In this document: piece by piece, positions 1 through 60,852 of the stretch | Layout of the letters: every line of letters begins with the position of its first letter | How positions within the stretch are numbered: the stretch's first letter is position 1 | DNA from: Waddlia chondrophila WSU 86-1044 | GTDB lineage: Bacteria > Chlamydiota > Chlamydiia > Chlamydiales > CAMCWV01 | Direction of reading: 5' to 3' | DNA length: 64,000 bases | Assembly: GCA_945882915.1 (NCBI GenBank) | Contig: CAMCWV010000004.1 | Span: forward strand, 15,643 to 79,642 | Position numbers and translations under genes: made by a program | Notes under the pieces: model-generated | Database searches by the model: none | Seen by the model: only the letters and a program-made list of their open reading frames with translations | What the model was told of the DNA's origin: nothing

Positions 1-1
1 T

Positions 2-2665: not shown

Positions 2666-2672
2666 AGCTCTG

Positions 2673-2880
2673 CTGTAGGAGCCGAGCGAAGCGAGGCTCT
2701 TTGGAGTGCTGGGACTTGTCCTAGCTTTGTTAGGCCTCGACATGTCGAGGCCGTACGACGTAGTAGATTACAAAACTTTGTTGTAATAAAGACACTTATA
2801 CGACCTCGACATGTCGAGGTCTAACAAAGCTAGGACGAGTCCCAGCACTCCAAAGAGCCTCGCTTCGCTCGCTCCTACAG
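2673..2880. repeat. Family A nested palindromic element, copy A1
   Basis: ~78-bp inverted arms (ctgtaggagccgagcgaagcgaggctctttggagtgctgggacttgtcctagctttgttagg... and its reverse complement). Each arm ends in a perfect 20-bp palindrome (ggcctcgacatgtcgaggcc; gacctcgacatgtcgaggtc). Homologous copies at 35388-35568 and 43832-44019. Confidence 0.9.
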
Positions 2881-2900
2881 CACCGGCCGCTAACGTTTAT

Positions 2901-4727: not shown

Positions 4728-4740
4728 GTTTCAAACTCCT

Positions 4741-6135: not shown

Positions 6136-6229
6136 TATTCTGTCCTAAGGTTCATTCGAATGGGCGGTAGTGTAGCAAAAACTCCCGTTTTATACGAGTA
6201 AAGCTTCTTTGCTTGCAAGAGGCACAGGG

Positions 6230-6280
6230 AAATACAAGAACAGGATAGGCAAGATCAGCCTTCGGCTGTCAGGATAAAAA
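6230..6280. repeat. Family E repeat core, copy E2
   Basis: aaatacaagaacaggataggcaagatcagccttcggctgtcaggataaaaa aligns with 48612-48663 (aaatacaagaacaggatgggcaggagccgcctcacggcgggcaggataaaaa). Both contain a central hairpin with a different stem sequence. Confidence 0.55.
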
Positions 6281-6386
6281 GTAAACTTTTAGTGGGAGCT
6301 GCTGCTAGCTATCTGCCTACCTTGACTTTTTAGAAAATTTGATGCATGCTATTTACTTTTTATCACCTAACCAGTAGTTATTTCGC

Positions 6387-7640: not shown

Positions 7641-7672
7641 TTAAGGGTCCTATAACTTTTTGAGGATGTGCT

Positions 7673-8482
7673 GTGAAGACACCTGTTGTAACAAGCTCTG
7701 AGCTGAAGACTCCTTGGGGATCTTCCATTCACTACGCAGGTCCAGGTCTTATGGCAGGTCTTATAGAACAGCCGCCTTTGCCAGCGTTTTTCTATTTTTC
7801 GCTCTCTGGACAGGCAAGCTTGACCCTAGACCCCTACAATCAGCCCGTAGCTTTTTTGCTAAAACAAAGCCAGCTATTAAATCGGCCAGTCCGTTGTTAT
7901 TCTCTGAATCTTCCCGGGCATGGAGAGCCAAAGTCATTTGAAGGGGCCATGAAGTTTTGGGCCTCTTCTTTTGCTAAAGAAGACATTATTCAGCTCTTTG
8001 TTAAAGAGGCTATAGAGTCCATTAGCTATCTGATTGATCAAGGGTATGTTGACCATAAACGTATTGCAGTAGGGGGGCTTTCTAGAGGGGGATTTGCCGC
8101 GTTGCATCTAGCAGCAGCAGATCCGCGCATTGGATCTGTGCTCGCTTTCGCGCCGCTACTTGATCTGGGGGTCGTCTCTGAATTTAAAGAGATTAAAGAC
8201 TCTCCGCTTGTTTGCGCGAGCTCTGCAGATCATTTGGTAGAGAAGCTCGTGAATCGGAATGTTCGACTCTATATTGGCAATCGAGATACGTGCGTTGGGA
8301 CAGAGCCTGCCTTTCGATTTATCCAGAAGCTTGCAGAGGCTGCTTATCACTCAAAGCCATCGGTCCGCTCTCCAAAGGCAGAGTTAATTATTGGCCCTTC
8401 TGTTGGGCATCAGGGGCATGGGACGCTTCCCCATGTATTCTTGGATGGAGCTGAGTGGATTATTAACATATACTCCTCGTAG
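7673..8482 (+). CDS. Alpha/beta-fold hydrolase (esterase/dienelactone-hydrolase-like), substrate unknown
   Basis: 269 aa from GTG. Nucleophile elbow GGLSRGG and C-terminal HQGHG. The last codons and stop (atatactcctcgtag) lie inside repeat D1. Confidence 0.6.
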   Translation: MKTPVVTSSELKTPWGSSIHYAGPGLMAGLIEQPPLPAFFYFSLSGQASLTLDPYNQPVAFLLKQSQLLNRPVRCYSLNLPGHGEPKSFEGAMKFWASSFAKEDIIQLFVKEAIESISYLIDQGYVDHKRIAVGGLSRGGFAALHLAAADPRIGSVLAFAPLLDLGVVSEFKEIKDSPLVCASSADHLVEKLVNRNVRLYIGNRDTCVGTEPAFRFIQKLAEAAYHSKPSVRSPKAELIIGPSVGHQGHGTLPHVFLDGAEWIINIYSS

Positions 8483-8540
8483 CTGAAAATGGGAATTTGG
8501 CGCCGTCCAAGTTCCCATTTTCAACTAAGAGAAGTATAAT
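8468..8540. repeat. Family D hairpin element, copy D1 (short variant)
   Basis: atatactcctcgtagctgaaaatgggaatttgg ... ccaagttcccattttcaactaagagaagtataat. Homologous to 35263-35360, 38482-38555 and the half copy at 27775-27804. Confidence 0.85.
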
Positions 8541-8567
8541 AAAATTATAACGCTGTGTTGTTTTGCT

Positions 8568-9305
8568 ATGGCACCTACTACTATTCTGACTAGCCCGCTG
8601 ACCTATTCTGTTATTATTCCCGTAAAGAATGAAGAGGAGAATATTGAGCCTCTTCTTCAAGAGATTGAGCCTGTCATGAAGGCTTTTGGGAAGGAGTGGG
8701 AGCTTATTTGTATTGATGATGGCTCAACAGATGGCAGCTTAAAGGTGCTTAAGGAGCTGGCAAAGACAAGGCCCTATCTTAGACTGATCGTCTTCAGTAA
8801 GAATTGTGGGCAGTCCAGCGCATTTGATGCAGGCTTTAAGGCGGCGCGTGGCGCTTATATCATCACGCTTGATGCGGATGGGCAAAACGACCCTGCAGAC
8901 ATCCCCAAGCTTGTAGAGGCAATAAAAGATTGTGACATGGTTGTGGGGTGGCGCCTTAATCGCAAAGACACGTTAAGCAAGAGGATCACTTCTCGCCTCG
9001 CAAATCTTGTGAGGAGCCGCTATTGCCACGATGGACTGCACGATACGGGCTGCTCCTTGAAGATCTACCGTGCCGAGTGTGTTAGGAAGATTAAATTGTA
9101 TCACGGCACCCACCGCTTCCTAGGCTCCCTTTTCTGTATCGAGGGGTTCCGTATCAAAGAAGTGGTAGTGAATCATCGTGAACGGACAAAGGGGCAAAGT
9201 AAATACCACTTTTTCAACCGATCCCTCTCTCCTTTCGTGGATATGCTAGCTGTCCATTGGATGTCGAAGCGGCGCCTGCGCTATGAAATAAAAGAGCAAT
9301 TATAA
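8568..9305 (+). CDS. Family 2 glycosyltransferase (polyprenyl-phosphate sugar transferase, ArnC/DPM1-like)
   Basis: 245 aa. GT-A motifs SVIIPVKNEEENI, DDGSTDGS and DADGQNDP (DXD). Confidence 0.85.
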   Translation: MAPTTILTSPLTYSVIIPVKNEEENIEPLLQEIEPVMKAFGKEWELICIDDGSTDGSLKVLKELAKTRPYLRLIVFSKNCGQSSAFDAGFKAARGAYIITLDADGQNDPADIPKLVEAIKDCDMVVGWRLNRKDTLSKRITSRLANLVRSRYCHDGLHDTGCSLKIYRAECVRKIKLYHGTHRFLGSLFCIEGFRIKEVVVNHRERTKGQSKYHFFNRSLSPFVDMLAVHWMSKRRLRYEIKEQL

Positions 9306-13252: not shown

Positions 13253-13276
13253 GACGACCTCTCTAGGTTAAATAAA

Positions 13277-13750
13277 TTAATTTAATAGGTTTGTAAAGGG
13301 GTTATATCCCGCTTCTTCGCCTTCTGATGTTGAATTTTCTTCAGATTTTAAAAAGGGGGTAAGAGTTTCTCTTTCTGGGCACTTCCCTTCGTGACATTCA
13401 GCAAATGGGGGCACTTCTAGAAGGAGTGATTCTCTTACGAACTCTTTCAAATCAAATAGCTTAGTTTTACATTCAGCAAGTGGCTGAGCAAGGTATAGGT
13501 TTTCTAGGACGATAGGAAGGTGCACATCGCCATTGCAGATTGAGCAAGGGAGAATTGCTTCTCCGTTGACATTGAGGTGGATGAGTAGCTCTTCATCGGC
13601 TATATAGGCTTCCCCTTCAATGTGGATGGGGTCGGCAAAGCGCAAGTCTTTGTCATTGATGTCCAAAAGCGCGGAAGGGATCTCTTCGTGAATTTCTTCA
13701 ACGTGCCCTTCTTTGAGACGGTCGGTGTAGATAGTTAGCGCTTCGATCAT
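13277..13750 (-). CDS. yceD: YceD/DUF177 family protein
   Basis: 157 aa, acidic, with CSICNG...ECHEGKCPE Cys motifs. Sits immediately upstream of rpmF, as in many bacteria. Confidence 0.82.
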   Translation of the reverse strand: MIEALTIYTDRLKEGHVEEIHEEIPSALLDINDKDLRFADPIHIEGEAYIADEELLIHLNVNGEAILPCSICNGDVHLPIVLENLYLAQPLAECKTKLFDLKEFVRESLLLEVPPFAECHEGKCPERETLTPFLKSEENSTSEGEEAGYNPFTNLLN

Positions 13751-14084
13751 GTTTTGACTAATAAATGACTTGTGAATTGGTCGAGATTACCTAAAAACCG
13801 CTTTTATCTCCAGTGCTTTTCCTAGAAGCTGCCAAGACGTACAGATACCATGCACAAAAATCGAAAAGGGGAGGTTGTCCTAAACAAGCGTTTGCCCTTG
13901 CCATGCCGGCAAAACCGGACTAGTCCACATGCACCGACGAAGGAGGGGTATATGAACTGTTACGCAAAACCTTAATTTATTTGAATTTTTTATTTTACGA
14001 TAAGTGGATGGTTTTTATTGTAAAATTAGTGTGAGTTGGTTTAGTTTTAATTAAACATGACGGATTAAAATCGCGGGTATACTT

Positions 14085-17000
14085 ATGAAAGATCGTTTTG
14101 CTGTTGGTTCTTTTCAAGACAACATGAAACAGCTCTATACCGCCCATATCATCCATAGGCAAGGGGATCCCAATGTCGAGGTTGCGGGGAAAGAGCGGCT
14201 AAAGCGCACCCAGGAAATTAGCACATTTGCTGTTCGCCATTTGATCAAAGCCAAGGCCTTGCAAAGCGGCGATAAGATCGAGGTTGACGAGTACTATAAA
14301 AAGATCCGCGTTTCCAATAAAGAAAAGTTTAAGTCGTTTTCCTTTAAAGAGTTGGGGATTCTCTTTGACAAAGGCTCACCAAAAAGTAAGCATACAGATG
14401 ATGCGTTGCCTCAGGTAACAGTCGAGGCCTTTGCCGAATCCCTTGTCCATAACATCCCTTTTGCCAAGTCTGCTCGCCTTCGCTACCTAAAAGACGCTGT
14501 TCTTGACCGGTATGCCATGTTCTATTTCACTGACTATCTGTGGGATACGTGGAAAATGCTCTCGATGAACGGGCTTCTTTGGAATATGCTCTCTTTGCCA
14601 GAGAGGATTTTTCACTACGGTCTTGCGGCCATCAACCTCTTGGGCTACGCCTATTTTAGCATTAGAGATCTCGCTAAAAACAAGTTCCCTCAGCTTAAGC
14701 GGGAATTCACCATGTGGATGTTCCAGCGAAATAAGGTCCCTCTTTCTTTGATAGATGCAATGGAAGGGGTTATTCAGTTTTTAGAGATGAAGCGGTCACA
14801 ATCAGCTGAGTACGATCAGGTCATCAATGAATACAAAGCCTGCCGGCGCATAGCCCTTGAGCTTGAGAAGATAAAGGGCTGGACAGTGCCTTTTCAGGTA
14901 AGCGGCGTTAAGAGGCTCGCTGAAAGGCAGGGGAAGGCTATTTCGCAGCTTAATGAGGGGCAGCGTCATCTTGTTCCGGGTGGGGTTTATAAAAATGGGC
15001 AGTTCATCCCTTTTCTCTATGAATTTGAACGGGGAATGGGGGAGGAAAAAGATAAGTGCCTTGTCCGTATCATTGATGTTCACGGGACGTTTTCTTCTTA
15101 TCAAGGGAGTGTCCAAAATGAAGAGACGGGAAAGCTAAAGGCGATCCCTTACATTTCGTTTACGATGGATCTTGCTAGAGCCTCTAATGCAGAAGATGTC
15201 TTGCAGCCACTCTTGGAGCTTCAGCTCCCGGCAGCTTATGCGGAGTTTAAAGCGCCAGAGACGATTGAAATGGCAAGAGCGTTCCTCCAAACGGGCCTTC
15301 TTAAGGCAGCCGATAGAGTTGAGTCGTTGCAAGATCATTGGGCAATACGCCGCGTGGGGAACTATGCCATTGTGCCTGCTCTAAAAGGACTTTCTGGAGT
15401 AACGCAGGTCATTTCGAACTGCTTTGGTTTTGCGGATCTTGGATCAGAGACTCTCGAGAGGATCCTGCCAGAGCTTCAGAAGCTTGACTATCCTAAGAAT
15501 CCGGAGCCGGATGATCCGAAGCTTATGAAGCTTGCAAAGCAAGGAAAGGGGGCCTACAAAACTGCCTGGGCGCTTTTGAAGCTCCGCTTCCCAGATCAAT
15601 GTGCCCGTCTGCAATTGGAGCTTAAATATACCGTTCTCTGTCAGCTTTTTGAAAATGAGAAGGCGCTGCTGTCTAAAGATGCAGGTGCTAGAGAGAGGGC
15701 GGTCATTCGGGAGTGTATTCAAGAGTGGGCTGATTTATTTGAAAAGAGCGCTCCAAAGTTATTTGCTAATGACGACATTCAGCTGCAAGAAGTCCACGGA
15801 ATGAATGAGCGGTTGGAGGGGATTCTTCAACAAATTCAAAAGATGGAAGAGGGGCTTGTTCGTCCTGTTAAAGAGCTTGTAATTCCAAAAAGATGTGTAA
15901 CAACCAATCATGGAAGCGTTGGTCTTTCTGCGCTTGCTCATGTCGATGGTTATGCGCCGATCCCTGCTAAATCGCTTGCGCCTATTATTTCAAGAAGTGT
16001 GATTGACTGGGCTCAAGGTCCTTCTGTCTCGGTGGCTGCTTTTGAGGGGTATCTTAAAGAGATGGACGCTCTTTGTAAGAAGGGTGATGATCACAAGTGG
16101 GAGGCCATTGACGTTGCTGCTGTGGATCTTTTGCGGCAGCTGCCAATTCCAACAGTGGGTGAAAGTATAGATCCTGTTTGGGATAGCAAGATGACGCCTG
16201 AGCAAATTTCGCATTGGCAAGAACTTGTGCACAGAGCGCGTGAATACGTCTGGAAGGCAAATCACATAAGGCAGACAGATGGGGTGACAGGGGTACATGC
16301 CGAGGCGCTTGCTAGAAGTGCAGCTGTGAGTCTAAAGCTGGCAATGCGTAATAAAGATGTAAACATGATAGGGCCTGTTGCGGGAATGGACCTGAGTCCC
16401 TTCGAGGCCATCACAGACAACAAGACCTTCTATTTTGCAAGTAAGGAGCAAGAAGATTCGGTGAGGGGTTGTCTTGACTTTATGCGAGAGGTAAATAAGC
16501 TATCTGAAAAAGAGTTCCCCCTGAGTGGGATTCACCTGTTAAACAAATCTTTAGGTGTTGGGGGAATACAAGATTGGAGGGAGGAGAGAGCGCTCTGGAT
16601 ATATGTAGAGGCTATTTACCAGAAGATCCATGGAGTTTTCGATTTTGATTGCGCTCTTAATCCAGCAGAGCGTTTTAAACATTTAAGAGAGGTGTCAACC
16701 TCTCTGGACTACCCTAGGCTTCCTGGAGTTAAGAAGCATCTTTCGACGCTGAAAGCTGTTTTACAGAAGCTTCCCCCAAAAGACTACACGGAGATTGCTA
16801 AGTTAAAGACGCTTCTTGAGCGTTTACCACAGGCATTTGAGTTTACTGGAGAGGATGCTGCTATTGAAGGTAAGTTAAAGGCGCTCAGTGACGAGCTGAA
16901 CTTGTTGCGTGAGCAGCTTAAGATCAAAAAAGACATCCCTCTCACATCCATTGGAAAGATGTACCCTAGAGAGATTTCGCAAGTTACTGGGGGGGAGGCA

Positions 17001-20000
17001 AAGAAGTTTTATGAGCTTCAACAGAAAGCAGAGATTTTAGCCGATTTAGGAGAGAAGGGGTACAACCATCCAGATATCACCCATTTGCGCCTTTGTGATT
17101 TGCAGTTAAAGACAATGCTTTCTAATCGCAACTGCTATTACGAGCGCGGCGTGATGGGGCTTTCTAAAGAAGCAGCCTTTCAAGCTTACGGCATTGCCCG
17201 TGGAGAGGTGCGCCTCGATAAATTTAGCAAAGATTTTGAGGCAACACGCCGCCGGTTCATCTCTTATGCGATGTCTAAAAAAGGGGAGCCTTACTTTTCG
17301 TTTAGAAGAGAGGGGAATACACAATCTTTTATCGACTACCTGGCGAGCTACAAGTGGGGTCTGGATTTCTTTTTGCTCAGTACAGGGCTTTCACTTGGCA
17401 ACACCTTTATGGCCGGTGGAATTAAGGCGCTTTTGATGGAAATTCTTCGGCTGATTTTTTCGTTGGAGTTTTGGGCGTTGGGGGGGATTTTTGGGTCTTC
17501 GTGGTTGATCTACCGCAATATGTATGGGCATGCACTTGTACGTGCTGATGTGATGTGTGAGCCTTATGGGCTCTGTTTGGGGTCTTGGGATCATCATAGG
17601 TATGACTTTGCTCGCAGCCGGGATGCAGAAGGGATTGGTAAGCCCTACGGAGGGTCTGGAGATGATGCTTTCAACCGTACTAGGGTCATAAGGGAAGATG
17701 TCGTTGGATTTCGCATTGGCGCCGATGATTATGATCCTTGGACTGCAGAAAAGACAGAGCAGAAAGTTATTGCAGATGCAGAGAGAATCGGAGAGCTTAC
17801 TCTTGAGCAGTCACGGGATTTGCAAAGAACGCGGCTTAACGCTGCTGAGATTGGGGAAGTCCTTGATTATTACTCAGATAACCCACTTCTTTTAGAAGAA
17901 GGTCCCCATCAACACCTTTTAGAGCGCGCATTGACTAGATATGGAAAAATGACCGAAGCGCTCGGTAGGCAGCCAGAGCTTGTCGCCCGCTTTAATCGCT
18001 TTTTCTCTAAGCAACTTAACTGGGCGCGCATGGGGCAAAAGGTGCAGGAGCAGCTTTTTCTGGCCCGCTTGTCAGAGCGTGTTAACACCTATATTTCAGA
18101 TAATGATGTGGCTAAAATCGTTTTTCACGCCCTGCCAAAAGAAGGTGGCGAGGCTGAGATTGGTACTGCTGTTTTGCGGGTGTTAGGCGAATTGGAACGC
18201 GACCAGACTCTTGGAAGGAGCCGGTCTTCGCTCAATACAGAGCTTCTTCGGAAGCTTCAGGAAAATGCGCGACTGCTTGCAGATCAAACAGGTCGATTAG
18301 CCAGGGAAGCTAAAGAGGCTCGATCAGCGCTTTCAGTTCGAATAGCTGAATTAGAAGGGGAAATTCGAAGAGTTCTTGCCGCTCAAGCCGCTCAAACCGC
18401 TGGAGGCTTTCAAATATATAGCAGGAACAAACCTGATCCACTAGAGGCTGAATTTGCAAGTCTTCGACTCAAGCAGGAAGATGCAAGCGCTCGATTAGCA
18501 CCTGGAGTTGCAAGTGCTCAATTAGAGTTTGTGAAGGGGCTTGATAGGTTTGGCGATGATATAGAAGGGCTTTCTAAAGAGATGCTTGAAGATCTCGAAA
18601 ATTCTAAGCTTCAAGAAGCGGTTATCGCGCTACAGGATCTTCTCAAGAAAGTAAGAGAAGGGATTCCAAACCGCCTTCTTTCAAAACAGATTCTCGACCA
18701 GTGCGTCAAGCAGTGCCGTGATGGGACCGCTGCTTATTTAAAGCATTTAGTCCCCATCCACGCCCATATCATCGCCGCGTACGCTTCTTATTCTGAAGCA
18801 GAGTTGCAATCTCTGGGTACAGAAGAGCTCCTTAGCGTTATCAAGAGCTTCTTTGTTGTGCGCGGCGCCGAAGAGGACGCAGCACATCGCGATCCTGTGT
18901 TTAATGATAGTGTCAATGAGGCTGTCTTAAAGCTGATGCCTATTTTTAAAGGACGTCTTAGTGATGATGCAACGAAAGAGCCACTCCTTAACGCTATTTT
19001 ACGAGCCGTTCACCCCGAAGCTACTGATCAAAAATGGGAAGGGACATCGACCTTTTTTACCTGTAAAGATTGGGAAATCGACATTGCCAACGGGCGTGTT
19101 TACCATCAAGGTTACTTAAAAACAGAGCTCCCCTATTCGGTTCTAAAGAATGAGGGTGTTCTTCGTCTTTTTGGCGGAGGGCCCATTCCTTGCAAGCTGC
19201 AGTGCAGCCAGAACTCTTATAATAAGAGTCAGGTGAGAAAGTTTACTTTTGAGAAAGGGGGCGATCACTACTCCATTATTCAGAGAGCTGACGAGTCGAT
19301 TGCCATCTACAAAGAGATCCTTAATATCCATACAGGCGTTCAGTCTTGGCATCAATGGATTCATCAGGAGATGCAAGGAGAAGAAAGTAAGGTGGCCTCA
19401 GCAGAGGACCGGGCGGGAAGAAGAACCTTGCCTAAGCCTGTGACAGATAACATTTGCTGGGTCGATTGTGATCAGCCCGCACACTTCCTTATTTGTGATG
19501 AGGGAGGAAAGGAGCTTTATAGGGGCACTTTGAGGGGGAAGAGTATTTATAGCTTGTACAACCTCAAGTACCCAGAAGGAGAAAACACCGTTCTTCGCGT
19601 TTGGGGTAATAAATCTTCACTTGAAGCGTTAACACGCATCGCTCCCCCTGAGCAGATTGAAGTGTTGGGGACGGCGGAAGGGGCTCCTAAGACCATTGTT
19701 TATCATAATTACAATCAGTCATTCTCTATTGATGAAGAGGGGATTGCTCATAGCGGAAATGATGCCCACTTTGTTCTTACCGACAAGCAAAAGTTGAATG
19801 TGAGGGGGCTTGGAAGCCACTTTCAGCACTTCCAAGTCGTTAAGCACGATGAAGATCAGATTGAAAGGGTGCTTATTCCTGCCAGTGAGATTGCCCAGAC
19901 AGTAAATTCTTTGAGCGCGCAGGCTGTGGGAATGGGCGTTGATGCGGTAACAGGGATTGCGACAGGAGGGAGGACCCCTCAGCAGGCCCTTGGTAACATG

Positions 20001-23000
20001 CAAAAGCAGCTTGCAAATGTTGCTAAGACAGAGCTTATTAAACAAGGGCTGTGGCTTATATTTAAGACCTATATGGGCAGTCGCCTCAGCGCGTTCTTTG
20101 GCCCAGACACCGATTCTAAGGCAGAGACTCCCGAAGTGACTTTCAAATACCAGAGTCAAAGTGACCTTCTTGCTTTTGAGATAGACCCTTATGACAGACG
20201 TTTTAAAACAAAGAACAAAGAGTCGTATCTCTATTTGTCTTACATGTTCTTGGCTTACGGAAAGCACAAGGAGGCGCTCTATTATTTAAAACAGGCAAAG
20301 ACCTCTCTTGCTTGGAGCGATAAAGCCAAAGACTATATTCGGTTAATGCAACAGTGGCCAGATGACTCTGCTGCTTCCAAGGCATTTAAGCTGCAGCTTG
20401 AGTTGATGTTCTGCGAAAATCAGATGAGCTTGCTCGGAGATGACCTTAAGAAAAAAGACACCTCCTTTAAGGGGATGCGCACCTACATTACGCTTATGGG
20501 ATTGCAGGTCCGTTATGAAGAGTATCAGGAGATTGAAAAGAAGCTGCCGGGAGATCTTCATTTAACTAGTGGTGATAAACGCGTTTACATGGAGCTTTTA
20601 TCGCAACTGGCTACCATTACGGGGCAAAAGCCAAAGCCTACAGTGCCAATCATCCCTCTTGCAGAAGAGACAGTTGATCCTTCGTCCATTACCCCTCCAC
20701 ATCTGGACTTTGGGGGAAACCCGTTGCTTGATATGCGTAAAAAGTTTAGTAGCACCCTTTATTATGCCCAGGAGAGCAAAAGATCGAGCAGAAGCACGCT
20801 CACTACTAAAATCAAGTTTGGCGATGAGGGATTCAAGGTTAGAGCGGGAAGGGAATTGATTCGGAACTTCGATGTTTACTTGAACATTGCAACAACGAAA
20901 AATCCTGGAGATAAAGAGTTTGATGATCTTTGCAAGCGGCTTGATCTTATGGGAGATAAGATCAAAGAGGTGCAAATGGCTAGATGGTATTTGCATGTTG
21001 CAACGGAGCTGCGAAGGAAAGGGGAGGGTCTTTCTTCTATAAAGCTCCCTGAATTTAAGTTTGAGTATGAAACTAAAAATCAGAGAGATCAGAGAGCAGG
21101 AGTTTTGCCTTCTGTAGCACAGCCTGGAGGATTTTGGGAAAAGTCACCGGCGGCTAGTCCTTCTGGGATGTTTTTGGGCAGAGTTAAGGATTCGTTTTCA
21201 TGGGCGTGGGATAGGATAAAGAAATACACGTTTTGGCAGGCTTATAGTCTGGTTTCTACAAGTGAACTTGACAGCAGATATCGCCAAGAGCTTGTAGATG
21301 ATATCGATAAGGTGTGCGGCGAGTTAGATAGCCTTGCCCGGCATAACGGCATTGGCAGTGTGAAAAAGCGCCCTCCACGTGGCGGGGCACGCCCTGTAGT
21401 TGAGGCTCAATCAGAAGTTCAGCTTCTTGCAGGGAAGGCAGAAGCACGCCGCAAGCTCCAAGAGCGGGCCGCGGGTAACAGCAATCTGGGGGGCGTTATC
21501 CAGGGACTTGGAGGGCTTGATAGCCTCGGAGGGTTCCTTCAACAGGTGATCTCTCAAGGAGCTCACGGAATTACCTCTATTCAGCAGATGATCCCTGTCC
21601 CTTTTAGACCGCTTCTTTCTGGAAAAACTGAAACGCTTCATCGCATCGAAGAGGCCCTTGACGGTATTTTAGAAAAAGCAGAAGAGGTTCTTGCTAAGAT
21701 CCCCGGAAGCACGCGAGATCAAAAACGAGATGCCCTCATGCAATGGCTAAAGATGCAAGTCAGCGGGCTTGGAGATAATCCGACAGCAAAGATGATTTGG
21801 GCGGTCACAGGGCCGGCGCTTGGGATTGACTTAGAGGTTGCAGGGCTCATTGTAGAGGCCTATTCCGAGTCGATTATTCAGGGGATTCTTCTTGTTCTTG
21901 ATACCCGGACCCCCTCGGCTGTTAAGCGGCACTGGCGAGCTGCAATGGACAAGGAAATTGACCTTCATTCAGAGCACCTTAAGCGGCTTGATGCAGTTGA
22001 AGAGGCCCTTAACAAATGCGTTAAACAGAAAATCCCGAGTTGGGAGGGGATCTTTACAACGCGGGGTGTAGAGATGTCTCGAGAGGATTACTTCCATCTA
22101 GATACGGGGATTCCTAAACTTGCTGCAGATGCTTTTAAGAAGGAGTGGAGATTTGGGCTTGACAAGGTCGCACGGGGCGAGGTCGCACGGGGTGAGTTGA
22201 ACCCTGAAAAAGTGGAGATTCAGGTGATACGTAATAGGGTAAGGACAGAGCTTGGCGATTACCTTTGTGGGAAGAGAACGCTTCCTCCTAAATGGCTCTT
22301 TAATCCAGAGGCGAAAGATCTTTTTGAGTCGGTCATTTTCCTTCATGAACAGTTGCAGGAGCGTTTGCCGGGCTTTTTATGTCCTGTTATTGTTGCTCAA
22401 GAAAAAGAACTCTTATTTGATGTTCTTAAAACGGCATCTTTAATACCTCAAGAGGTGCAATTAGAGTGCATCACAATTGAACAAGTCAATAAATACTTTG
22501 AAAATTTAAAAACCTCTTGGACAGGCCCAGGGGGGACCATCCCTCCACATCGCAAGCGTGTGCTCGATAGAGAGTGGACCGACGCACAGCATACGATTAC
22601 TGAAAAGAAGGCGAAGGCTCAGACAGAAGGTTTTAAACTTCCTATTCCTAAAACAGCAGTAGAGGCGCACAGTCAGCTTGGTGAAATTAAAATTCTTCGC
22701 GATCAGGCGATTGAAAAGGGGCAGGAGCTGCAGAAGAAAGCAGAAGACTCTCGGACGAAGGCACTTCGTCTTATTAATGACCCACCACTAACGCCTCTTA
22801 AACAGGCCTATCAAGATCTTCATGTTCTTGTAGATAAGCATGAAGAGGTGTTTTTCCCTGAGGTGAAGCGTTTGTGGCTGCAGGGAAGGCTTTTTGATCT
22901 GTGCAAAAAGAATCCTCAGCTAACACACGAAAATTTAGCTGAGTTAGAAGGGTTTGTTACAGAGCACCTTCAAGCAGGTAATGAAGCCGTTCAGGCCCAG

Positions 23001-26000
23001 CGCCTTTGCCGTGCTTTCCAGTCTCTTGAAGAAGGGGTGCAGAAGGTAGTTAATCCAAAAGGGCTCTCTAAAGAGAAGCGGGAGCAGCTCCCATTGAAGA
23101 TTAAAGAGGCTCACTCTTTGATTACGCAGCAGCTTTCGTTGGCCCGTACCTACAAAGTGGACTCTTCACAGCTTTATTCACGCGCTTGTCTGATGATCGA
23201 GAATGTCAAAGGGTATGTTCTTCGCCCTGAGCAGGTGGAGGTGTTCTACGAGCTTTCTAGAGACCCTACCAAGGTGAAGCAGCTCATTATGGGGTCGGGG
23301 AAAACAGAGGTGGGGAACGTTGTCATCATGTTGATGTTGGCAATGGGGAACAATCTCCCACGCTGGATTGGGCCAAAAGCGCTCTTTAATGTTAATAGTA
23401 GAGATCTTGACAGCATTTGTCCTGAACACTTTGGGCAAGAGCTTTATCGGTTTGAATTCGAAAGGAACATGCTCAAGGATGCCGCCTCGGTACAGAAGAT
23501 CTATCACAGAGAGATGGAGACGATGGCGGGCCGTGGGTTTGCCATGAACACGCGGGAGAGCATGCAGTGCGCCGAGCTCTACTGGCTAAAGAACATTGAG
23601 GATCTTGAGAAGGCTCCTGTGGAGGCAACCGAGGATCTGGAGTCGCAAGACAAATATTTGACAGAGCTTTTGAAGATGTGGCGTAAACGAGGGTACATCC
23701 TCAACGACGAAGTCGATAGCGTAAACGATCCTACCCACCAGTACATTTTTGCGTGTGGCGCTTCTGAAAAGCTCGGCAAGCAGCCGATTAAGATCAATGC
23801 AGCACTTAATATGATGCGTTTGATTTTGAAAAACCAAGAGTGGAAAGAGCGGCTAAAAATCAAAAACAACCTCCAGCAGAACCTCTCTGAAAAAGATCAT
23901 GAAGAGCTGCGGCTGTTTGTTGCTAATTGCTTTTTTGATGAGTGTGTCACGAAAGGAAGTCTTAAAGAGGAAAATCGTGAAGAGTTCATCCTTTTTGTAA
24001 CAGGGGACCAGCGTACTGTTAAGATCCCTGCGTGTGTGACGCTCTCTCCAGACAAAGAGTTTTTTAAGGAGGTGGCTGTTGTTAAGACGCTGCTTACGAC
24101 AATTGTTGAAGGAGCTTTGAGCAAGAAAGGGAACGTCAACTACGGCCCTGAGATGTTTGAGGAGATGCAGAATGGGAAGAAAGTCTTCAGGAGAGGTCGC
24201 TGGGTTGTTCCTTATATTGCCCATGGAAAGCAAAGGCCAGGAAGCATCCACGGTAATGAGCTTGAAAGGATCATCTTCCACATCTTGAGTTATCTCCAGC
24301 TGGGGGTTACTTTCGATCAAATTAAAGAGAGGCGTGACACTCTTCAGGCTGAGGCAATTACCTTGAAGCAGTCAGAGCAGTACGCGCCGGGCGCGACCTC
24401 TCCTGAGCAGCAGTGGAGATCTTACGGCTGGACAGGAGAGGTCGCGCTTCTTGATGTTACAGATGAAGATCTTAGAGGTGTTGTAGAAACCCTCAACAGC
24501 ACAGAGGGGGATCTTGAGGAGGAGTCAATCCTGAAATACTTGGAGCAGGTGCTTCTTCCTGAAATGGAAATTCACGGCCAGACACTGGAAAGTAATTCTC
24601 AGAATTTTGGTGATCAGAATAGGTTCTTTGCGGGCTTCTCTGGAACTGTCGGCAAAATCTATGCCTTGAATGATAAGATCACTGAAAAGAGCAAGACGGC
24701 AAGGCTTGGGACAAACGGGGAGACTCTTGAGGCGATCCTTCGAAAGAGCAATAACGGAATGGATGAGGTTGACACCTATGGGGGTGAGACCGCAGAAGAG
24801 CGTGTTAAGGAGCTTTTAGAAAAGTGCAAGGGAGCCAACTTCTTTGTCGATGGAGGGGCGGCGCTTGACTGTACCGATCCTCAGGAGTTTGCTGCTCGCT
24901 GCGCTGAGGAGCAGTCTAAAATTGAGATCAGAGATCAAGCGCACAAGATTGTAGGGGTTGTCTTCTTCAATAAGGAAGATAGCTGGGTTGTTCAGTTTGT
25001 TGGGCAAGATCATCCAACGCCTGTTGAGGATGTAGGGGGTGTGGCTCTCAAGAACTTATTCACCCTTTATGACCATGGACACCGTATTGGGGCGCATAGG
25101 CTTCAAGATGCTTCAGCAGAGTTTGTGGCAACTGGGGGCGCTAAGACCGATTTTGAAGATGCCGCTCAGAGTTGGGCCCGTGCAAGGGGGCTTTGGACGA
25201 AAAAACAGAAGCCTAGACACCTTGTTTCAGATGAGACCAGAAAGCTTATTAAGGGCAAAGAGAGCAAAGAGCCTTTACTTGTCGGGGAGTATGTGGGGCA
25301 CCTCTTTGCCAACCAGGCAGATGAAGAGGCAAAGGCAAATTACAAAGCCTCGCGTCACAAGATCATGAATATCATGCGCAGCGCTCTTATTAGTTCACTT
25401 CTTGACGCTCCTGATGCGTACGCTAGAAGAGATCTTCTTAAGTGCTACAAAGAGCATCTTTTTAAGACGAGCTCAGAAAATTATATAGCGATGCTTCAGG
25501 TCGAGAAGATGGATACGCCAGAGAATGCGTTAAAAGCACTTATCGAAGCTGAGCAGGATAAGATCACGGGGATTTTGGGCGCTCTTCCAGAGCGTCTTCT
25601 TGGGGGGCAAGAAGGTCTTTTTAAGGCTGCATATCAGCGGCTTGAGGCCTATAAAGAGCCAAGTGCTACGGGAGATACTCCAGGGATTCTCCCGCCAGAA
25701 TTTTATCCTGAAAAAGTGCCGATGCACGAGTCTTCTGCCCAAACAGAGGTTACTGTTGAGCAAGAGCAAGAGGCCGAGCAAGAGGCAGAGGAGGAGCTTG
25801 ACCTCGAAACCAAGAAGCAGGTCGCCCAGAACAACTTTAAGAGCAAGTGGAAACCTTGGCTTACAACTGGAAGGTCATCTCCACTACTGTATAGATTCAT
25901 GTCTGAGACAACTTCGCAGCTTGATAGCAAGCTAGGGGATGAGTTTAAAGGGGTATTTGATAAGCGTGTGCTTTTCTCTCCAAATATGATTCCGCAAGGT

Positions 26001-26528
26001 GAAAGAGCTTTGTGGGGATACCAAAAGCCGATACATGATCTTTTGGTGGTATATGGTCTTTCTGGAAAAGCGTGGACGGTTATTGCCTGTGATGCCCTAG
26101 ACAAAGACCGGGAGCTAGAAGATCTATTTAAAAAGCACAAAGACCCTGATATTAAAATAGGGCACTACTCGATGCGTGAAAAGAAGATGCAGAGATGGAG
26201 TAACGCTTTTAGTGATGAGGAGCTTGGATCAGAAGGTTTCTTGAGGTTAACGGTGCAGTGTCACTTCTTTAATGCTGAGACTCATTACCAAGGGATAGTT
26301 GAAAAGGATTCTCGCAAAAACACAGAGTACTCTGTTCTTCAGAAATGGTTAAGCGAGCACCCGCATGACAAGATGATTAAGCTCTATAAGAGCTCGGCTG
26401 CAGTCTTCCGCGACAAAGCGCAGAAGTACGAGAAGAGTGTTCTTAGTAAAGGGTTTGCCTCCATCAAGAGCGTTCAAGAGGCCGAAATTTCAAGGCGTCA
26501 AGCTGAGCGCCTCTTAAAAAGGCCGTAA
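14085..26528 (+). CDS. Giant (4147 aa) multidomain protein of unknown function with a C-terminal-third P-loop NTPase module; candidate secreted/inclusion-membrane protein
   Basis: A single uninterrupted 12.4-kb frame. Hydrophobic blocks at nt 14508-14670 and 17358-17520. Walker A GSGKT at 23292-23306 and DEVD at 23706-23717. Acidic run EQEQEAEQEAEEE near the C-terminus. The start has no obvious SD. Confidence 0.85.
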   Translation: MKDRFAVGSFQDNMKQLYTAHIIHRQGDPNVEVAGKERLKRTQEISTFAVRHLIKAKALQSGDKIEVDEYYKKIRVSNKEKFKSFSFKELGILFDKGSPKSKHTDDALPQVTVEAFAESLVHNIPFAKSARLRYLKDAVLDRYAMFYFTDYLWDTWKMLSMNGLLWNMLSLPERIFHYGLAAINLLGYAYFSIRDLAKNKFPQLKREFTMWMFQRNKVPLSLIDAMEGVIQFLEMKRSQSAEYDQVINEYKACRRIALELEKIKGWTVPFQVSGVKRLAERQGKAISQLNEGQRHLVPGGVYKNGQFIPFLYEFERGMGEEKDKCLVRIIDVHGTFSSYQGSVQNEETGKLKAIPYISFTMDLARASNAEDVLQPLLELQLPAAYAEFKAPETIEMARAFLQTGLLKAADRVESLQDHWAIRRVGNYAIVPALKGLSGVTQVISNCFGFADLGSETLERILPELQKLDYPKNPEPDDPKLMKLAKQGKGAYKTAWALLKLRFPDQCARLQLELKYTVLCQLFENEKALLSKDAGARERAVIRECIQEWADLFEKSAPKLFANDDIQLQEVHGMNERLEGILQQIQKMEEGLVRPVKELVIPKRCVTTNHGSVGLSALAHVDGYAPIPAKSLAPIISRSVIDWAQGPSVSVAAFEGYLKEMDALCKKGDDHKWEAIDVAAVDLLRQLPIPTVGESIDPVWDSKMTPEQISHWQELVHRAREYVWKANHIRQTDGVTGVHAEALARSAAVSLKLAMRNKDVNMIGPVAGMDLSPFEAITDNKTFYFASKEQEDSVRGCLDFMREVNKLSEKEFPLSGIHLLNKSLGVGGIQDWREERALWIYVEAIYQKIHGVFDFDCALNPAERFKHLREVSTSLDYPRLPGVKKHLSTLKAVLQKLPPKDYTEIAKLKTLLERLPQAFEFTGEDAAIEGKLKALSDELNLLREQLKIKKDIPLTSIGKMYPREISQVTGGEAKKFYELQQKAEILADLGEKGYNHPDITHLRLCDLQLKTMLSNRNCYYERGVMGLSKEAAFQAYGIARGEVRLDKFSKDFEATRRRFISYAMSKKGEPYFSFRREGNTQSFIDYLASYKWGLDFFLLSTGLSLGNTFMAGGIKALLMEILRLIFSLEFWALGGIFGSSWLIYRNMYGHALVRADVMCEPYGLCLGSWDHHRYDFARSRDAEGIGKPYGGSGDDAFNRTRVIREDVVGFRIGADDYDPWTAEKTEQKVIADAERIGELTLEQSRDLQRTRLNAAEIGEVLDYYSDNPLLLEEGPHQHLLERALTRYGKMTEALGRQPELVARFNRFFSKQLNWARMGQKVQEQLFLARLSERVNTYISDNDVAKIVFHALPKEGGEAEIGTAVLRVLGELERDQTLGRSRSSLNTELLRKLQENARLLADQTGRLAREAKEARSALSVRIAELEGEIRRVLAAQAAQTAGGFQIYSRNKPDPLEAEFASLRLKQEDASARLAPGVASAQLEFVKGLDRFGDDIEGLSKEMLEDLENSKLQEAVIALQDLLKKVREGIPNRLLSKQILDQCVKQCRDGTAAYLKHLVPIHAHIIAAYASYSEAELQSLGTEELLSVIKSFFVVRGAEEDAAHRDPVFNDSVNEAVLKLMPIFKGRLSDDATKEPLLNAILRAVHPEATDQKWEGTSTFFTCKDWEIDIANGRVYHQGYLKTELPYSVLKNEGVLRLFGGGPIPCKLQCSQNSYNKSQVRKFTFEKGGDHYSIIQRADESIAIYKEILNIHTGVQSWHQWIHQEMQGEESKVASAEDRAGRRTLPKPVTDNICWVDCDQPAHFLICDEGGKELYRGTLRGKSIYSLYNLKYPEGENTVLRVWGNKSSLEALTRIAPPEQIEVLGTAEGAPKTIVYHNYNQSFSIDEEGIAHSGNDAHFVLTDKQKLNVRGLGSHFQHFQVVKHDEDQIERVLIPASEIAQTVNSLSAQAVGMGVDAVTGIATGGRTPQQALGNMQKQLANVAKTELIKQGLWLIFKTYMGSRLSAFFGPDTDSKAETPEVTFKYQSQSDLLAFEIDPYDRRFKTKNKESYLYLSYMFLAYGKHKEALYYLKQAKTSLAWSDKAKDYIRLMQQWPDDSAASKAFKLQLELMFCENQMSLLGDDLKKKDTSFKGMRTYITLMGLQVRYEEYQEIEKKLPGDLHLTSGDKRVYMELLSQLATITGQKPKPTVPIIPLAEETVDPSSITPPHLDFGGNPLLDMRKKFSSTLYYAQESKRSSRSTLTTKIKFGDEGFKVRAGRELIRNFDVYLNIATTKNPGDKEFDDLCKRLDLMGDKIKEVQMARWYLHVATELRRKGEGLSSIKLPEFKFEYETKNQRDQRAGVLPSVAQPGGFWEKSPAASPSGMFLGRVKDSFSWAWDRIKKYTFWQAYSLVSTSELDSRYRQELVDDIDKVCGELDSLARHNGIGSVKKRPPRGGARPVVEAQSEVQLLAGKAEARRKLQERAAGNSNLGGVIQGLGGLDSLGGFLQQVISQGAHGITSIQQMIPVPFRPLLSGKTETLHRIEEALDGILEKAEEVLAKIPGSTRDQKRDALMQWLKMQVSGLGDNPTAKMIWAVTGPALGIDLEVAGLIVEAYSESIIQGILLVLDTRTPSAVKRHWRAAMDKEIDLHSEHLKRLDAVEEALNKCVKQKIPSWEGIFTTRGVEMSREDYFHLDTGIPKLAADAFKKEWRFGLDKVARGEVARGELNPEKVEIQVIRNRVRTELGDYLCGKRTLPPKWLFNPEAKDLFESVIFLHEQLQERLPGFLCPVIVAQEKELLFDVLKTASLIPQEVQLECITIEQVNKYFENLKTSWTGPGGTIPPHRKRVLDREWTDAQHTITEKKAKAQTEGFKLPIPKTAVEAHSQLGEIKILRDQAIEKGQELQKKAEDSRTKALRLINDPPLTPLKQAYQDLHVLVDKHEEVFFPEVKRLWLQGRLFDLCKKNPQLTHENLAELEGFVTEHLQAGNEAVQAQRLCRAFQSLEEGVQKVVNPKGLSKEKREQLPLKIKEAHSLITQQLSLARTYKVDSSQLYSRACLMIENVKGYVLRPEQVEVFYELSRDPTKVKQLIMGSGKTEVGNVVIMLMLAMGNNLPRWIGPKALFNVNSRDLDSICPEHFGQELYRFEFERNMLKDAASVQKIYHREMETMAGRGFAMNTRESMQCAELYWLKNIEDLEKAPVEATEDLESQDKYLTELLKMWRKRGYILNDEVDSVNDPTHQYIFACGASEKLGKQPIKINAALNMMRLILKNQEWKERLKIKNNLQQNLSEKDHEELRLFVANCFFDECVTKGSLKEENREEFILFVTGDQRTVKIPACVTLSPDKEFFKEVAVVKTLLTTIVEGALSKKGNVNYGPEMFEEMQNGKKVFRRGRWVVPYIAHGKQRPGSIHGNELERIIFHILSYLQLGVTFDQIKERRDTLQAEAITLKQSEQYAPGATSPEQQWRSYGWTGEVALLDVTDEDLRGVVETLNSTEGDLEEESILKYLEQVLLPEMEIHGQTLESNSQNFGDQNRFFAGFSGTVGKIYALNDKITEKSKTARLGTNGETLEAILRKSNNGMDEVDTYGGETAEERVKELLEKCKGANFFVDGGAALDCTDPQEFAARCAEEQSKIEIRDQAHKIVGVVFFNKEDSWVVQFVGQDHPTPVEDVGGVALKNLFTLYDHGHRIGAHRLQDASAEFVATGGAKTDFEDAAQSWARARGLWTKKQKPRHLVSDETRKLIKGKESKEPLLVGEYVGHLFANQADEEAKANYKASRHKIMNIMRSALISSLLDAPDAYARRDLLKCYKEHLFKTSSENYIAMLQVEKMDTPENALKALIEAEQDKITGILGALPERLLGGQEGLFKAAYQRLEAYKEPSATGDTPGILPPEFYPEKVPMHESSAQTEVTVEQEQEAEQEAEEELDLETKKQVAQNNFKSKWKPWLTTGRSSPLLYRFMSETTSQLDSKLGDEFKGVFDKRVLFSPNMIPQGERALWGYQKPIHDLLVVYGLSGKAWTVIACDALDKDRELEDLFKKHKDPDIKIGHYSMREKKMQRWSNAFSDEELGSEGFLRLTVQCHFFNAETHYQGIVEKDSRKNTEYSVLQKWLSEHPHDKMIKLYKSSAAVFRDKAQKYEKSVLSKGFASIKSVQEAEISRRQAERLLKRP

Positions 26529-26594
26529 GCCCCTCTAACCGCTCTAAATAAAAATCGCGGAAGCGAAGCTCTTTGAGTTGCCGCAAAAATCAAA

Positions 26595-26684
26595 CAGGGG
26601 CCTGAAAGGTCCTAATGTTACAGCGGGAAGCCTTCCGCTAACGCTTCGACCTCAGGCTGTAACATTAGGACCTTTCAGGCCCTT
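26595..26684. repeat. Family B palindromic element, copy B1 (short variant)
   Basis: caggggcctgaaaggtcctaatgttacagc ... gctgtaacattaggacctttcaggccctt. The arms match B2 at 51575-51789. Confidence 0.85.
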
Positions 26685-26706
26685 GTTCAATTAATGTGTT
26701 CAGCTC

Positions 26707-26982
26707 GGCATTGCCCGCGTAATTGCAATTGCAGCCTTACAGGCTGCATGGGATATATTCGCTTATACCCAGGGCGCTGCCCTGGGCTATGTGCATTTTC
26801 AGCCCTTCAGGCTGAAGCTGGGGAGCTGAGGCGCTTTTAGTTAAAGCCTTTTGCATAAAGTCTCAGCCTGTAAGGCTGAAAATGCACACAGCCCAGGGCA
26901 GGCGCCCTGGGTATAGGCAAATATATTTTACGCAGCCTGTAAGGCTGCTACTCTTAGGGGGCTGTAATTATGCAATAATGCC
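26707..26982. repeat. Family C nested palindromic element, copy C1 (full length)
   Basis: Termini ggcattgcccgcgtaattgcaatt / ctgtaattatgcaataatgcc. Local hairpins gcagccttacaggctgc, cccagggcgctgccctggg and agcccttcaggct, each mirrored in the right half. Homologs at 55650, 63076, 50189 and 61065. Confidence 0.9.
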
Positions 26983-27128
26983 ACTCAGCTCTCCTTCCCT
27001 TAAATTTTGTCAAAAAATAGATGGTTTTTCTCCCTCTAGCGCCCTGGGGGAGATTTTAAAGTTCCTGAGGCAAACGCCGATAAGAGTAAATAGAGATTTC
27101 TGTCTACTTTGAATTAAGGAATTAAGCC

Positions 27129-27773
27129 ATGAATCAACCTGATCGTTCAACACCTACTCTAAATCGAAAAGACTACCTGATGATTCTGGTTGCTTTTGGC
27201 ATTGCCTTTGCCTGCACGTACTCTCTTGGCGGGCCCTTTGCCAGCGGAAGCTACCTCTTTAATCAAATATTCATCTTCGCTGTTGGTCTTCCTGTTGGGA
27301 TCCTGCTCTTTAGTGCGGCTATGTTAATGGGTCCAGGGCTTGTGATCAACGATGCGGTTACTATGGAAGATTCCGAGTTCAAGAAAGTGCTTAAAGAAGC
27401 AAGGTCTCGTTTGGGTAAGGTTCGGCTTGTGGTCTCTTATGATGTAAAGCCCACTACAGGGACTGTGTGGCATTTAACTAACGCAGATAGAGCAGCTTGG
27501 ACAAACGCTGTGTTCTTAATTGAGCGGAGTATTAATGGTGAGAAAGTGACCGATAAGCACCTTTTGGGTGTGGTAGAGCCTGGGATGCGCCTTCTGATTG
27601 AGAGCTCACTTCAAGATAGCGAGCAGGCTCATTGGAGAGTCTTAGTCGCGTGCTCTGAGGGGCGTAGTTTGGAATTGCCGAAGAAAGCACTTAACCAAAA
27701 TGATTTTGATAAATTGATAACTGTTCATACAAAAAAAGAAAAACGAATAGAAAACCAGACGTCAGAGACGTAA
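27129..27773 (+). CDS. Small membrane protein with bilobed hydrophobic N-terminal region (Inc-like), unknown function
   Basis: 214 aa. SD-like aagga upstream. Hydrophobic stretch YLMILVAFGIAFACTYSLGG...IFIFAVGLPVGILLFSAAMLMGPGLVI, followed by a soluble domain. Confidence 0.6.
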   Translation: MNQPDRSTPTLNRKDYLMILVAFGIAFACTYSLGGPFASGSYLFNQIFIFAVGLPVGILLFSAAMLMGPGLVINDAVTMEDSEFKKVLKEARSRLGKVRLVVSYDVKPTTGTVWHLTNADRAAWTNAVFLIERSINGEKVTDKHLLGVVEPGMRLLIESSLQDSEQAHWRVLVACSEGRSLELPKKALNQNDFDKLITVHTKKEKRIENQTSET

Positions 27774-45723: not shown

Positions 45724-45839
45724 CACAATTGCAAAGTTTTGTGTTGAATTATTTGGCAGAGCCTTTTCGGGTTCTGAACGCTTTTCTTGTTTTTGAAAAA
45801 GTTCTCTGTTATCATTGTCGCCGCTACATTGGGGGAAAG

Positions 45840-60846: not shown

Positions 60847-60852
60847 TTTGGG

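Follow-up and report, generated by a model that had tools for sequence, protein, structure and literature searches.

This locus raises the question of what a single bacterial protein of 4147 amino acids (aa) does, and whether its hydrophobic segments place it among the chlamydial inclusion membrane (Inc) proteins. The locus lies in a 64,000-nucleotide (nt) stretch of contig CAMCWV010000004.1 (assembly GCA_945882915.1), which is referred to here as the window. Our analysis indicates that the protein belongs, as a lineage-specific variant, to DUF3638, a family of giant proteins that is known but wholly uncharacterised; what is new is that its predicted motor can be described as SecA-like.

A single giant gene

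The open reading frame (ORF) begins with ATG, runs for 4147 codons on the plus strand to its only stop, which is terminal, and occupies 12,444 of the 64,000 bases (19.4%), in agreement with the uninterrupted frame of about 19% of the window described in the initial annotation. At ~47% GC, an open frame of this length would not be expected to arise by chance. An identical 4147-aa protein is recorded on six contigs (NCBI, Logan, ENA), and an ortholog of 4185 aa (P0002/P0011, 36–41% identity) is collinear with it from the first residues, where M1, F5, V7, G8 and S9 are identical, to the C-terminal domain. The gene is therefore not an assembly artefact, and assembly error, which had been raised as a possible objection, was not found. 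Poor conservation against the ortholog is confined to two stretches (aa ~1300–1500 and ~2300–2500), and the ortholog sits in a different genomic neighbourhood. The following element is a genuine single gene of a chlamydia-like genome:

14085..26528, plus strand: giant-protein gene, DUF3638 family (ORF list and translation)

An intact ATPase module in the C-terminal part

Pfam DUF3638 (PF12340) was matched at aa 3034–3249 with 61.9 bits against a gathering cutoff of 31 (E 6.9e-17), and with 65 bits when the module was scored alone. This was the sole Pfam match in the protein, and the NCBIfam, PADLOC and PDB sequence searches gave no match. This domain assigns the protein to the DUF3638 giant-protein family, which is uncharacterised, and we consider the protein very probably a real ATPase of that family. 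The NTPase module proposed earlier was recovered as a superfamily 2 (SF2) ATPase near the C-terminus with intact motifs. Within the conserved C-terminal ~1200 aa, alignment with relatives showed a predicted two-lobed SF2-type ATPase with its catalytic residues intact and an insert, followed by a long-helix scaffold, an acidic disordered linker and a small C-terminal domain:

22929..23264, plus strand: helical lead-in to the ATPase, aa 2949–3060, including invariant Q3050 (model and alignments)
23265..23783, plus strand: ATPase lobe 1, aa 3061–3233, core of the DUF3638 match (Pfam, alignment and model)
23283–23306, plus strand: Walker A, LIMGSGKT, aa 3067–3074 (alignment)
23706–23717, plus strand: Walker B, DEVD, aa 3208–3211 (alignment)
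23784..24563, plus strand: insert of ~260 aa between Walker B and motif III, mostly helical with a beta-hairpin, aa 3234–3493 (model)
24564..25265, plus strand: ATPase lobe 2, aa 3494–3727 (alignments)
24633–24647, plus strand: motif III, AGFSGT, aa 3515–3520 (alignment)
25062–25097, plus strand: motif V, degenerate, TLYDHGHRIGAH, aa 3660–3671 (alignment)
25167–25187, plus strand: motif VI, QSWARAR, aa 3695–3701 (alignment)
25281..25649, plus strand: helical scaffold, aa 3733–3855, opening with a 41-residue helix immediately C-terminal to lobe 2, as in SecA (model)
25725..25931, plus strand: disordered acidic/Gln-rich linker, aa 3881–3949 (predicted local distance difference test, pLDDT, below 50)
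25758–25796, plus strand: acidic run EQEQEAEQEAEEE, aa 3892–3904, inside the linker
25941..26525, plus strand: conserved C-terminal alpha/beta domain, aa 3953–4147 (family hidden Markov model, HMM, and alignment)

In an alignment of 40 family members with a mean identity of only 22%, the two Gly and the Lys of Walker A, the Glu of Walker B, the Thr of motif III and the Q..R.R of motif VI were invariant, which argues that the ATPase is under strong selection. DUF3638 was detected in all 40 aligned relatives and DUF3645 (PF12359) in 16 of them; DUF3645 gave no match in the giant protein at E≤1. The acidic run had already been noted in the initial annotation and was found inside the linker, and relatives show an equivalent E/Q-rich linker. 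The C-terminal domain (~190 aa) carries the motifs KP.H, F.NG(D/E).D and WL, and the family HMM placed linker and C-terminal domain after the motor in about 35 relatives from Chlamydiota and Gammaproteobacteria. Conserved Cys or His residues were absent from this domain in the alignment of relatives, no PDB relative was found by sequence, and the PDB Foldseek list held no short structural match to it.

Resemblance of the module to SecA

An AlphaFold2 model of aa 2948–4147 was built from 8 sequences (mean pLDDT 66, predicted template modelling score 0.49). It exhibits, in order, the helical lead-in, lobe 1, the ~260-aa insert, lobe 2, the 41-residue helix with a helical bundle, the linker and the alpha/beta C-terminal domain. 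When the model was compared with the PDB using Foldseek, four matches reached E≤1e-3 and all were SecA: 1tf5 from B. subtilis (E 1.2e-6), 5eul_A from the SecA–SecY complex (E 8.3e-6), and 5k9t (E. coli SecA-N68) and 4uaq (M. tuberculosis SecA2), both at E 1.9e-4. All four had a probability of 1.00 over 836–1033 aligned columns. Next in the list were dynein, Brr2, MDA5, XPD and DinG with E>0.05, the helicases Brr2, MDA5, XPD and DinG having E>0.4.

SecA is the ATPase that drives polypeptides through the Sec channel. The model suggests the same domain order in both proteins: lobe 1, an insert after Walker B, motif III, lobe 2, a long helix and a helical domain. The preprotein-binding domain of SecA occupies the position of the insert. 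Among the motifs, DEVDS is identical to E. coli SecA, and AGFSGT corresponds to AGMTGT. Walker B and motif III are separated by 309 aa in the giant protein and by 180 aa in E. coli SecA. Compared with SecA, the giant protein has a longer insert composed mainly of helices, is about five times larger, carries an extra C-terminal domain and has no link to SecYEG. The predicted likeness concerns fold and layout only, in which SecA is the closest match, and the module is accordingly named SecA-like and not a SecA.

A lineage-specific N-terminal region

The first ~2950 aa exhibited no family match in Pfam, NCBIfam, PADLOC or PDB sequence searches, which bears out the earlier remark that no domain could be named in the first ~3000 aa; the only domain found by these searches was DUF3638, starting at aa 3034. 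Profiles of conserved N-terminal islands likewise found nothing in Pfam or the PDB except a sub-threshold tetratricopeptide repeat (TPR) match. The TPR-like stretches suggested earlier are reduced to this one match near aa 2047–2071 (E 0.06–0.13). A refutation foreseen for the locus, a match to RHS/YD, RTX or adhesin families, was not obtained in Pfam or NCBIfam, and neither was a match to autotransporter families. Three regions are common to other members:

14832..16244, plus strand: N-terminal island, aa 250–720, motif L.PGG.Y....P.LYEF, common to the distant chlamydial members P0028 and L009
17751..18095, plus strand: helical island, aa 1223–1337, common to P0008, P0004 and L038 (local profile, BLAST)
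18837..20504, plus strand: mid-region, aa 1585–2140, a beta-rich part with DNICW followed by a TPR-like helical part, common to relatives P0028, L006, L038, L009, L033 and P0003

An exhaustive phmmer search with aa 1–1200 against 1.84 billion representative proteins returned no protein other than the query, P0002 and P0028 (E 3e-4), and P0028 is itself a family member (family HMM E 6.7e-147). On the evidence of these searches, the first ~1200 aa, with both hydrophobic blocks, form an orphan region confined to a very small clade. An AlphaFold model of aa 1000–2199 built from two sequences was unusable (pLDDT 35.9), and long helices, which might correspond to the coiled-coil stretches named in the initial annotation, were seen in the N-terminal part only there.

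Hydrophobic blocks and the Inc question

Two blocks were described in the initial annotation as Inc-like, and both were located where it placed them. Hydrophobicity was assessed from 19-aa Kyte–Doolittle (KD) means and a simple Hessa-scale insertion sum, calibrated on the proteins of the window itself. Here, soluble proteins reached +3.6 (GlmS) and +3.5 kcal/mol (UDP-glucose dehydrogenase), whereas the real membrane proteins were all below +1.5 kcal/mol, with MraY at -1.8 and a cytochrome b-like protein at -2.9.

14508..14672, plus strand: hydrophobic block 1, aa 142–196, not membrane-like (KD, insertion sum and conservation)
17358..17522, plus strand: hydrophobic block 2, aa 1092–1146, bilobed and marginally hydrophobic (KD, insertion sums and ortholog)

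The Inc-like character stood only in part. Block 1 was rejected as a membrane segment: its KD mean is always <1.4, its best insertion sum is +4.7 kcal/mol, and the residues conserved with the ortholog are largely polar (D141, D150, D154, R174, H177 and N184). Its sequence suggests that it is probably the core of a folded, soluble N-terminal domain.

Block 2 has a bilobed shape that the ortholog retains, but with a KD maximum of 1.54 and insertion sums of +3.7/+4.0 kcal/mol it is no more hydrophobic than the soluble enzymes. At the aligned position, the ortholog shows two clearer lobes (+2.0/+2.0 kcal/mol), and only hydrophobic character is conserved between the two proteins, which would fit a membrane hairpin. 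The value of +2.0 in the ortholog is not proof of a membrane segment, because the Walker A segment of soluble lobe 1 reaches +1.97 kcal/mol in some relatives. In the closest other relatives (P0028, L009 and L006), no segment fell below +6.5 kcal/mol. Block 2 is thus a possible membrane-associating hairpin, seen only in this protein and its ortholog.

In chlamydial Inc proteins, the bilobed hydrophobic domain spans about 40–60 aa and is made up of two transmembrane helices joined by a short loop. The giant protein resembles them in the outline of block 2, a bilobed hydrophobic stretch of ~50 aa, and in its occurrence in a chlamydia-like organism. It differs in that the hydrophobicity is marginal and the stretch lies >1000 aa from the N-terminus instead of near it. 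Inc proteins are also typically a few hundred aa long, as against 4147 aa. An Inc identity is unlikely for the giant protein, and the label should not be applied without experiments.

Of the 83 family ORFs, at least 8 contain genuinely membrane-like segments, nearly always located towards the C-terminus. The union of membrane and giant ATPase that the initial annotation considered unusual therefore exists in the family, mostly at the C-terminus and not in these two blocks; to judge from these segments, a membrane-anchored giant ATPase appears to be a real recurring theme, located elsewhere in the protein than block 2. Insertion sums were -1.4 in L062, -1.28 in L061 (Simkania), -0.83 in L049, 1.2 in L034 and 0.7 in L056, where the segment lies about 50 aa before the stop. 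The Berkiella members L015 and L018 carry a bilobed hydrophobic block.

Across L062, L061, L049, L056, L034, L015, L018 and L008, giant paralogs from other Chlamydiota and from Gammaproteobacteria, the segments were tail-anchor-like or bilobed, with insertion sums of -1.4 to +1.7. The Rhabdochlamydia copies have in common a weaker conserved C-terminal segment, GWILWNLRILAYICGIYLL.

The ORF directly downstream of the giant gene (27129–27773, plus strand, 214 aa) has a short polar N-terminus, a bilobed hydrophobic domain and a soluble C-terminal part. The lobes span aa 16–35 and 41–70, with a KD of 2.13 and an insertion sum of -0.25 kcal/mol. Neither Pfam nor NCBIfam matched it, and its 90%-identity cluster has 4 members, itself and three others. 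Judged by its hydrophobic profile, this ORF would be far stronger than the giant protein as an Inc-like candidate.

Distribution of the family and related systems

The initial annotation had proposed that the phyletic distribution of homologs be determined. A scan of one genome per bacterial or archaeal species identified 77 loci; because the search patterns came from chlamydial sequences, the resulting distribution is not exhaustive, and the source genome was not among the species representatives. Chlamydiota accounted for 41 loci (Parachlamydiales, Rhabdochlamydia, Simkania, Waddliaceae and Algichlamydia) and Gammaproteobacteria for 32 (Legionellales, Berkiella, Coxiellaceae, Francisellaceae and unclassified lineages), while the remaining 4 were found elsewhere; every taxon with a name belonged to Chlamydiota or to Gammaproteobacteria of the Legionellales type. 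Nearly all loci are ORFs of >2000 aa, and relatives range from 2000 to >5000 aa. Several copies are present in some genomes, with up to 7 on the 3.8-Mb gammaproteobacterial contig CAWARU010000001.1.

The copies on that contig are loci L029, L036, L043, L050, L057 and L060, plus L004, which has an ankyrin-repeat protein two genes downstream. Locus L056 comprises tandem giant paralogs, ORFs 1–9231 (3077 aa) and 13272–21128 (2619 aa).

Beyond bacteria, nine significant matches (E down to 2.8e-18) were obtained when predicted viral structures were searched with Foldseek. Every one belongs to a giant virus that infects protists, namely Fadolivirus, Hyperionvirus, Hokovirus (four), Harvfovirus, Yasminevirus and a Megaviridae sample. 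The matches are annotated as "DUF3638 domain-containing protein" or, automatically and in two of the nine, as "ubiquitinyl hydrolase 1". When run on viral contigs, the patterns of the genome scan gave no hits, but this does not show that relatives are missing there. One eukaryotic transcriptome homolog was identified, and it carries SPRY and EF-hand domains. The family was found almost only in protist-dwelling bacteria and giant viruses, plus eukaryotes.

Gene size, ATPase motifs, acidic linker and C-terminal domain are common to the giant protein and about 80 bacterial DUF3638/DUF3645 relatives. It differs from other DUF3638 members in lacking a DUF3645 match, in its degenerate motif V and in ~1200 extra N-terminal residues present only here and in one ortholog.

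"SecA-like helicase-related domains" have been listed among the effectors of the amoeba symbiont Amoebophilus (PMC3482391), and giant toxins secreted by actinobacteria combine SecA-like ATPase domains, proposed to aid secretion, with major facilitator superfamily domains (PMC8195603). Very large size, a host-associated bacterium, a SecA-like ATPase and possibly membrane segments are features in common with the giant protein, although these domains, which may differ from DUF3638, are known only from brief comparative-genomics remarks. Unlike those toxins, the giant protein showed no toxin domain. No domain of this type appears in an atlas that catalogues the effector domains of Legionella pneumophila.

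Single chains of >3000 aa, some with internal hydrophobic regions, are also known from pathogens, chlamydiae among them, in the form of lymphostatin (LifA/Efa1), the chlamydial cytotoxin and the large clostridial toxins. In contrast to these, no glycosyltransferase, protease or toxin family was matched in Pfam or NCBIfam, and no sequence similarity to them was observed.

Proposed role and alternative explanations

As a whole, the locus is best explained as encoding a secreted, host-directed SecA-like ATP motor, possibly membrane-associated, a reading to which we give somewhat better than even chances. Inspection of the N-terminal sequence revealed no Sec signal peptide, and relatives occur in protist-dwelling bacteria, giant viruses and eukaryotes, which suggests export by another route and action in the host cytosol. 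Furthermore, an ATPase needs a site with ATP, and eukaryotes as well as cytoplasmic giant viruses carry the same module; the bacterial versions therefore most likely act in the host cytosol. That the giant protein is a host-directed effector is, by itself, a moderately favoured proposition.

The proposed route is type III secretion for chlamydiae and Dot/Icm for Legionellales. Once in the host cytosol, where some family members may be tethered to membranes, the protein would bind and hydrolyse ATP between its lobes and so set insert and scaffold in motion; by analogy with SecA, these could grip, remodel or thread a host polymer. A polypeptide is the substrate that the analogy favours, although we hold this only tentatively and nucleic acid is also possible. 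The lineage-specific N-terminal ~2950 aa may serve targeting and scaffolding, and the bilobed segment at aa 1092–1146 may hold the protein on a membrane.

Several observations weigh against this reading. The template modelling scores to SecA are low (0.20–0.36) and model confidence is moderate. Sequence-profile similarity to SecA was not detectable: the Pfam models SecA_DEAD, SecA_PP_bind and SecA_SW and the SecA models of NCBIfam gave no match at E≤1, family profiles against the PDB returned neither SecA nor any other match, and hhalign of the family profile with the single E. coli SecA sequence gave a probability of 0.4%, equally insignificant for RhlE, UvrB and RapA. The weak matches among the 40 relatives were to ResIII (12) and DEAD (6), both nucleic-acid enzymes. 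Motif V is degenerate in the giant protein, with H3671 in place of the aspartate that at least 90% of family members retain (consensus FTFYDQxHTxGxDI). No secretion-system gene or chaperone adjoins the giant gene, and the literature mentions DUF3638 in passing only, with no experimental function for any member.

The closest competitor is an Inc-type integral inclusion-membrane protein, in which, following type III secretion, the hairpin at aa 1092–1146 (perhaps also aa 142–196) inserts and the ATPase faces the host cytosol. This explanation, which could coexist with the host-directed motor, draws on the bilobed form of block 2, its conservation in hydrophobic character only, its same position and higher hydrophobicity in the ortholog and the clear anchors of other family members. 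We nevertheless regard it as unlikely, since block 2 lies at the level of soluble GlmS and UDP-glucose dehydrogenase and far from the true membrane proteins, even the ortholog's value is matched by a soluble Walker A segment, and block 1 is weak and conserved in polar residues. In addition, block 2 lies deep within the chain, P0028, L009 and L006 have no comparable segment, and the model covering it (pLDDT 36) is unusable. Quite unlikely, in our estimation, is an SF2 nucleic-acid helicase or translocase that stays inside the bacterium, acting in anti-phage or anti-plasmid defence or in DNA/RNA processing. The SF2 motifs and the weak ResIII and DEAD matches would suit such an enzyme, and giant ATPases are common in defence systems. 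Against it, PADLOC returned 0 families, no nuclease, methylase or partner gene was observed nearby, the neighbourhood is not conserved in the ortholog, and the best structural matches are to SecA and not to helicases. The concentration of the family in bacteria that live, obligately or facultatively, inside protists, with further members in giant viruses and eukaryotes, also fits this explanation poorly.

A deubiquitinase is very improbable. The idea comes from the automatic name carried by two of the nine viral structural matches, and deubiquitinase effectors abound in chlamydia-like bacteria (PMC10643670, PMC9741609). No peptidase family, however, was matched in the 4147 aa by Pfam or NCBIfam, and the paper on viral-tegument-like deubiquitinases is silent on DUF domains, giant proteins and P-loop ATPases. 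The single conserved Cys, in DNICW (aa 1788–1792), is missing in L038 and has no His conserved with it, and the C-terminal domain conserves neither residue; a thiol-protease reading of DNICW was rejected for want of a conserved Cys/His pair. The chance that separate genes were fused by error, or that the ORF is a decaying pseudogene, is negligible: unusual length alone speaks for it, whereas the identical product comes from six contigs in three sources, the ortholog is collinear over its full length with the same N- and C-termini, and relatives are equally ORFs of 2000 to >5000 aa.

If the host-directed motor is the correct explanation, an uncharacterised giant-gene family gains a testable hypothesis, namely SecA-like ATP motors working in the host cell, some of them membrane-anchored. 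Catalytic residues for mutation (K3073, E3209, R3699 and R3701) and fragments for expression are defined. The family would also be one more that is common to amoeba-associated bacteria, giant viruses and their hosts. A bolder version, which we consider improbable, holds that DUF3638 proteins are SecA-derived polypeptide-threading motors deployed by intracellular bacteria and giant viruses in protist hosts, anchored in a host or vacuole membrane and using ATP to move proteins across or out of it. The anchors would then be the aa 1092–1146 hairpin here and the C-terminal segments in paralogs, and the protein would represent an effector-borne translocase or unfoldase without a described counterpart.

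Genomic context of the giant gene

The gene is preceded by an AT-rich leader, as reported in the initial annotation:

13950..14084, plus strand: AT-rich 5' leader before the start codon (GC 0.267)

The GC content of these 135 bases compares with 0.472 both in the ORF and in the window, and no convincing sigma-70-like site above chance was found in the leader. Since the GC content of the ORF equals that of the window, the gene is no recent insertion. Self-BLAST detected no internal repeats in the protein, and no similarity to other large ORFs of the window was found.

The neighbouring genes are of the housekeeping type and include glmS, glmM, a poly(A) polymerase-family enzyme, a fused 638-aa LpxB, plsX, rpmF and yceD, as well as RNase G, pitrilysin, UDP-glucose dehydrogenase, groEL, murF and mraY. 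No nuclease, methylase or sec genes adjoin the giant gene. The best NCBIfam models in the window were PRK01021 (LpxB), PRK13846 (PlsX) and PRK00642 (pyrophosphatase), which we take to be the chlamydial types of these enzymes, and the contig of relative P0003 also encodes the chlamydial histone-like Hc1. These markers suggest that the source is an uncultured chlamydia-like bacterium.

Immediately 3' of the gene, the intergenic region 26529–27128 contains dense nested inverted repeats (26588–26692 and 26724–26948), which correspond to the repeat block that the initial annotation placed at this boundary. The arms measure 37 nt (26588–26624 / 26656–26692), 47 nt (26731–26777 / 26902–26948) and 39 nt (26777–26815 / 26863–26901). 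A 15-nt palindromic core, CAGCCTGTAAGGCTG, is present in 4 copies spaced 64–69 nt apart, and no Rfam family matched the region.

Other observations in the window

Two further large ORFs on the plus strand, 38779–43764 (1661 aa) and 110–2665 (851 aa), are without a meaningful family match and dissimilar to the giant protein. ORF 45729–48521 (plus strand, 930 aa) has a TTG start, and its C-terminal ~110 aa resemble the LIC20035 adhesin family NF033566 (E 8.9e-37, under the curated cutoff). Additionally, a redox module at 58951–63064 (plus strand) comprises a 631-aa NAD(P)-binding oxidoreductase resembling the small subunit of glutamate synthase, upstream of a 442-aa b-type cytochrome that resembles ExtP/ExtQ (or cytochrome b6), with a 170-aa ORF (61188–61700) between them. 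Such a module is unexpected in a chlamydia-like genome.

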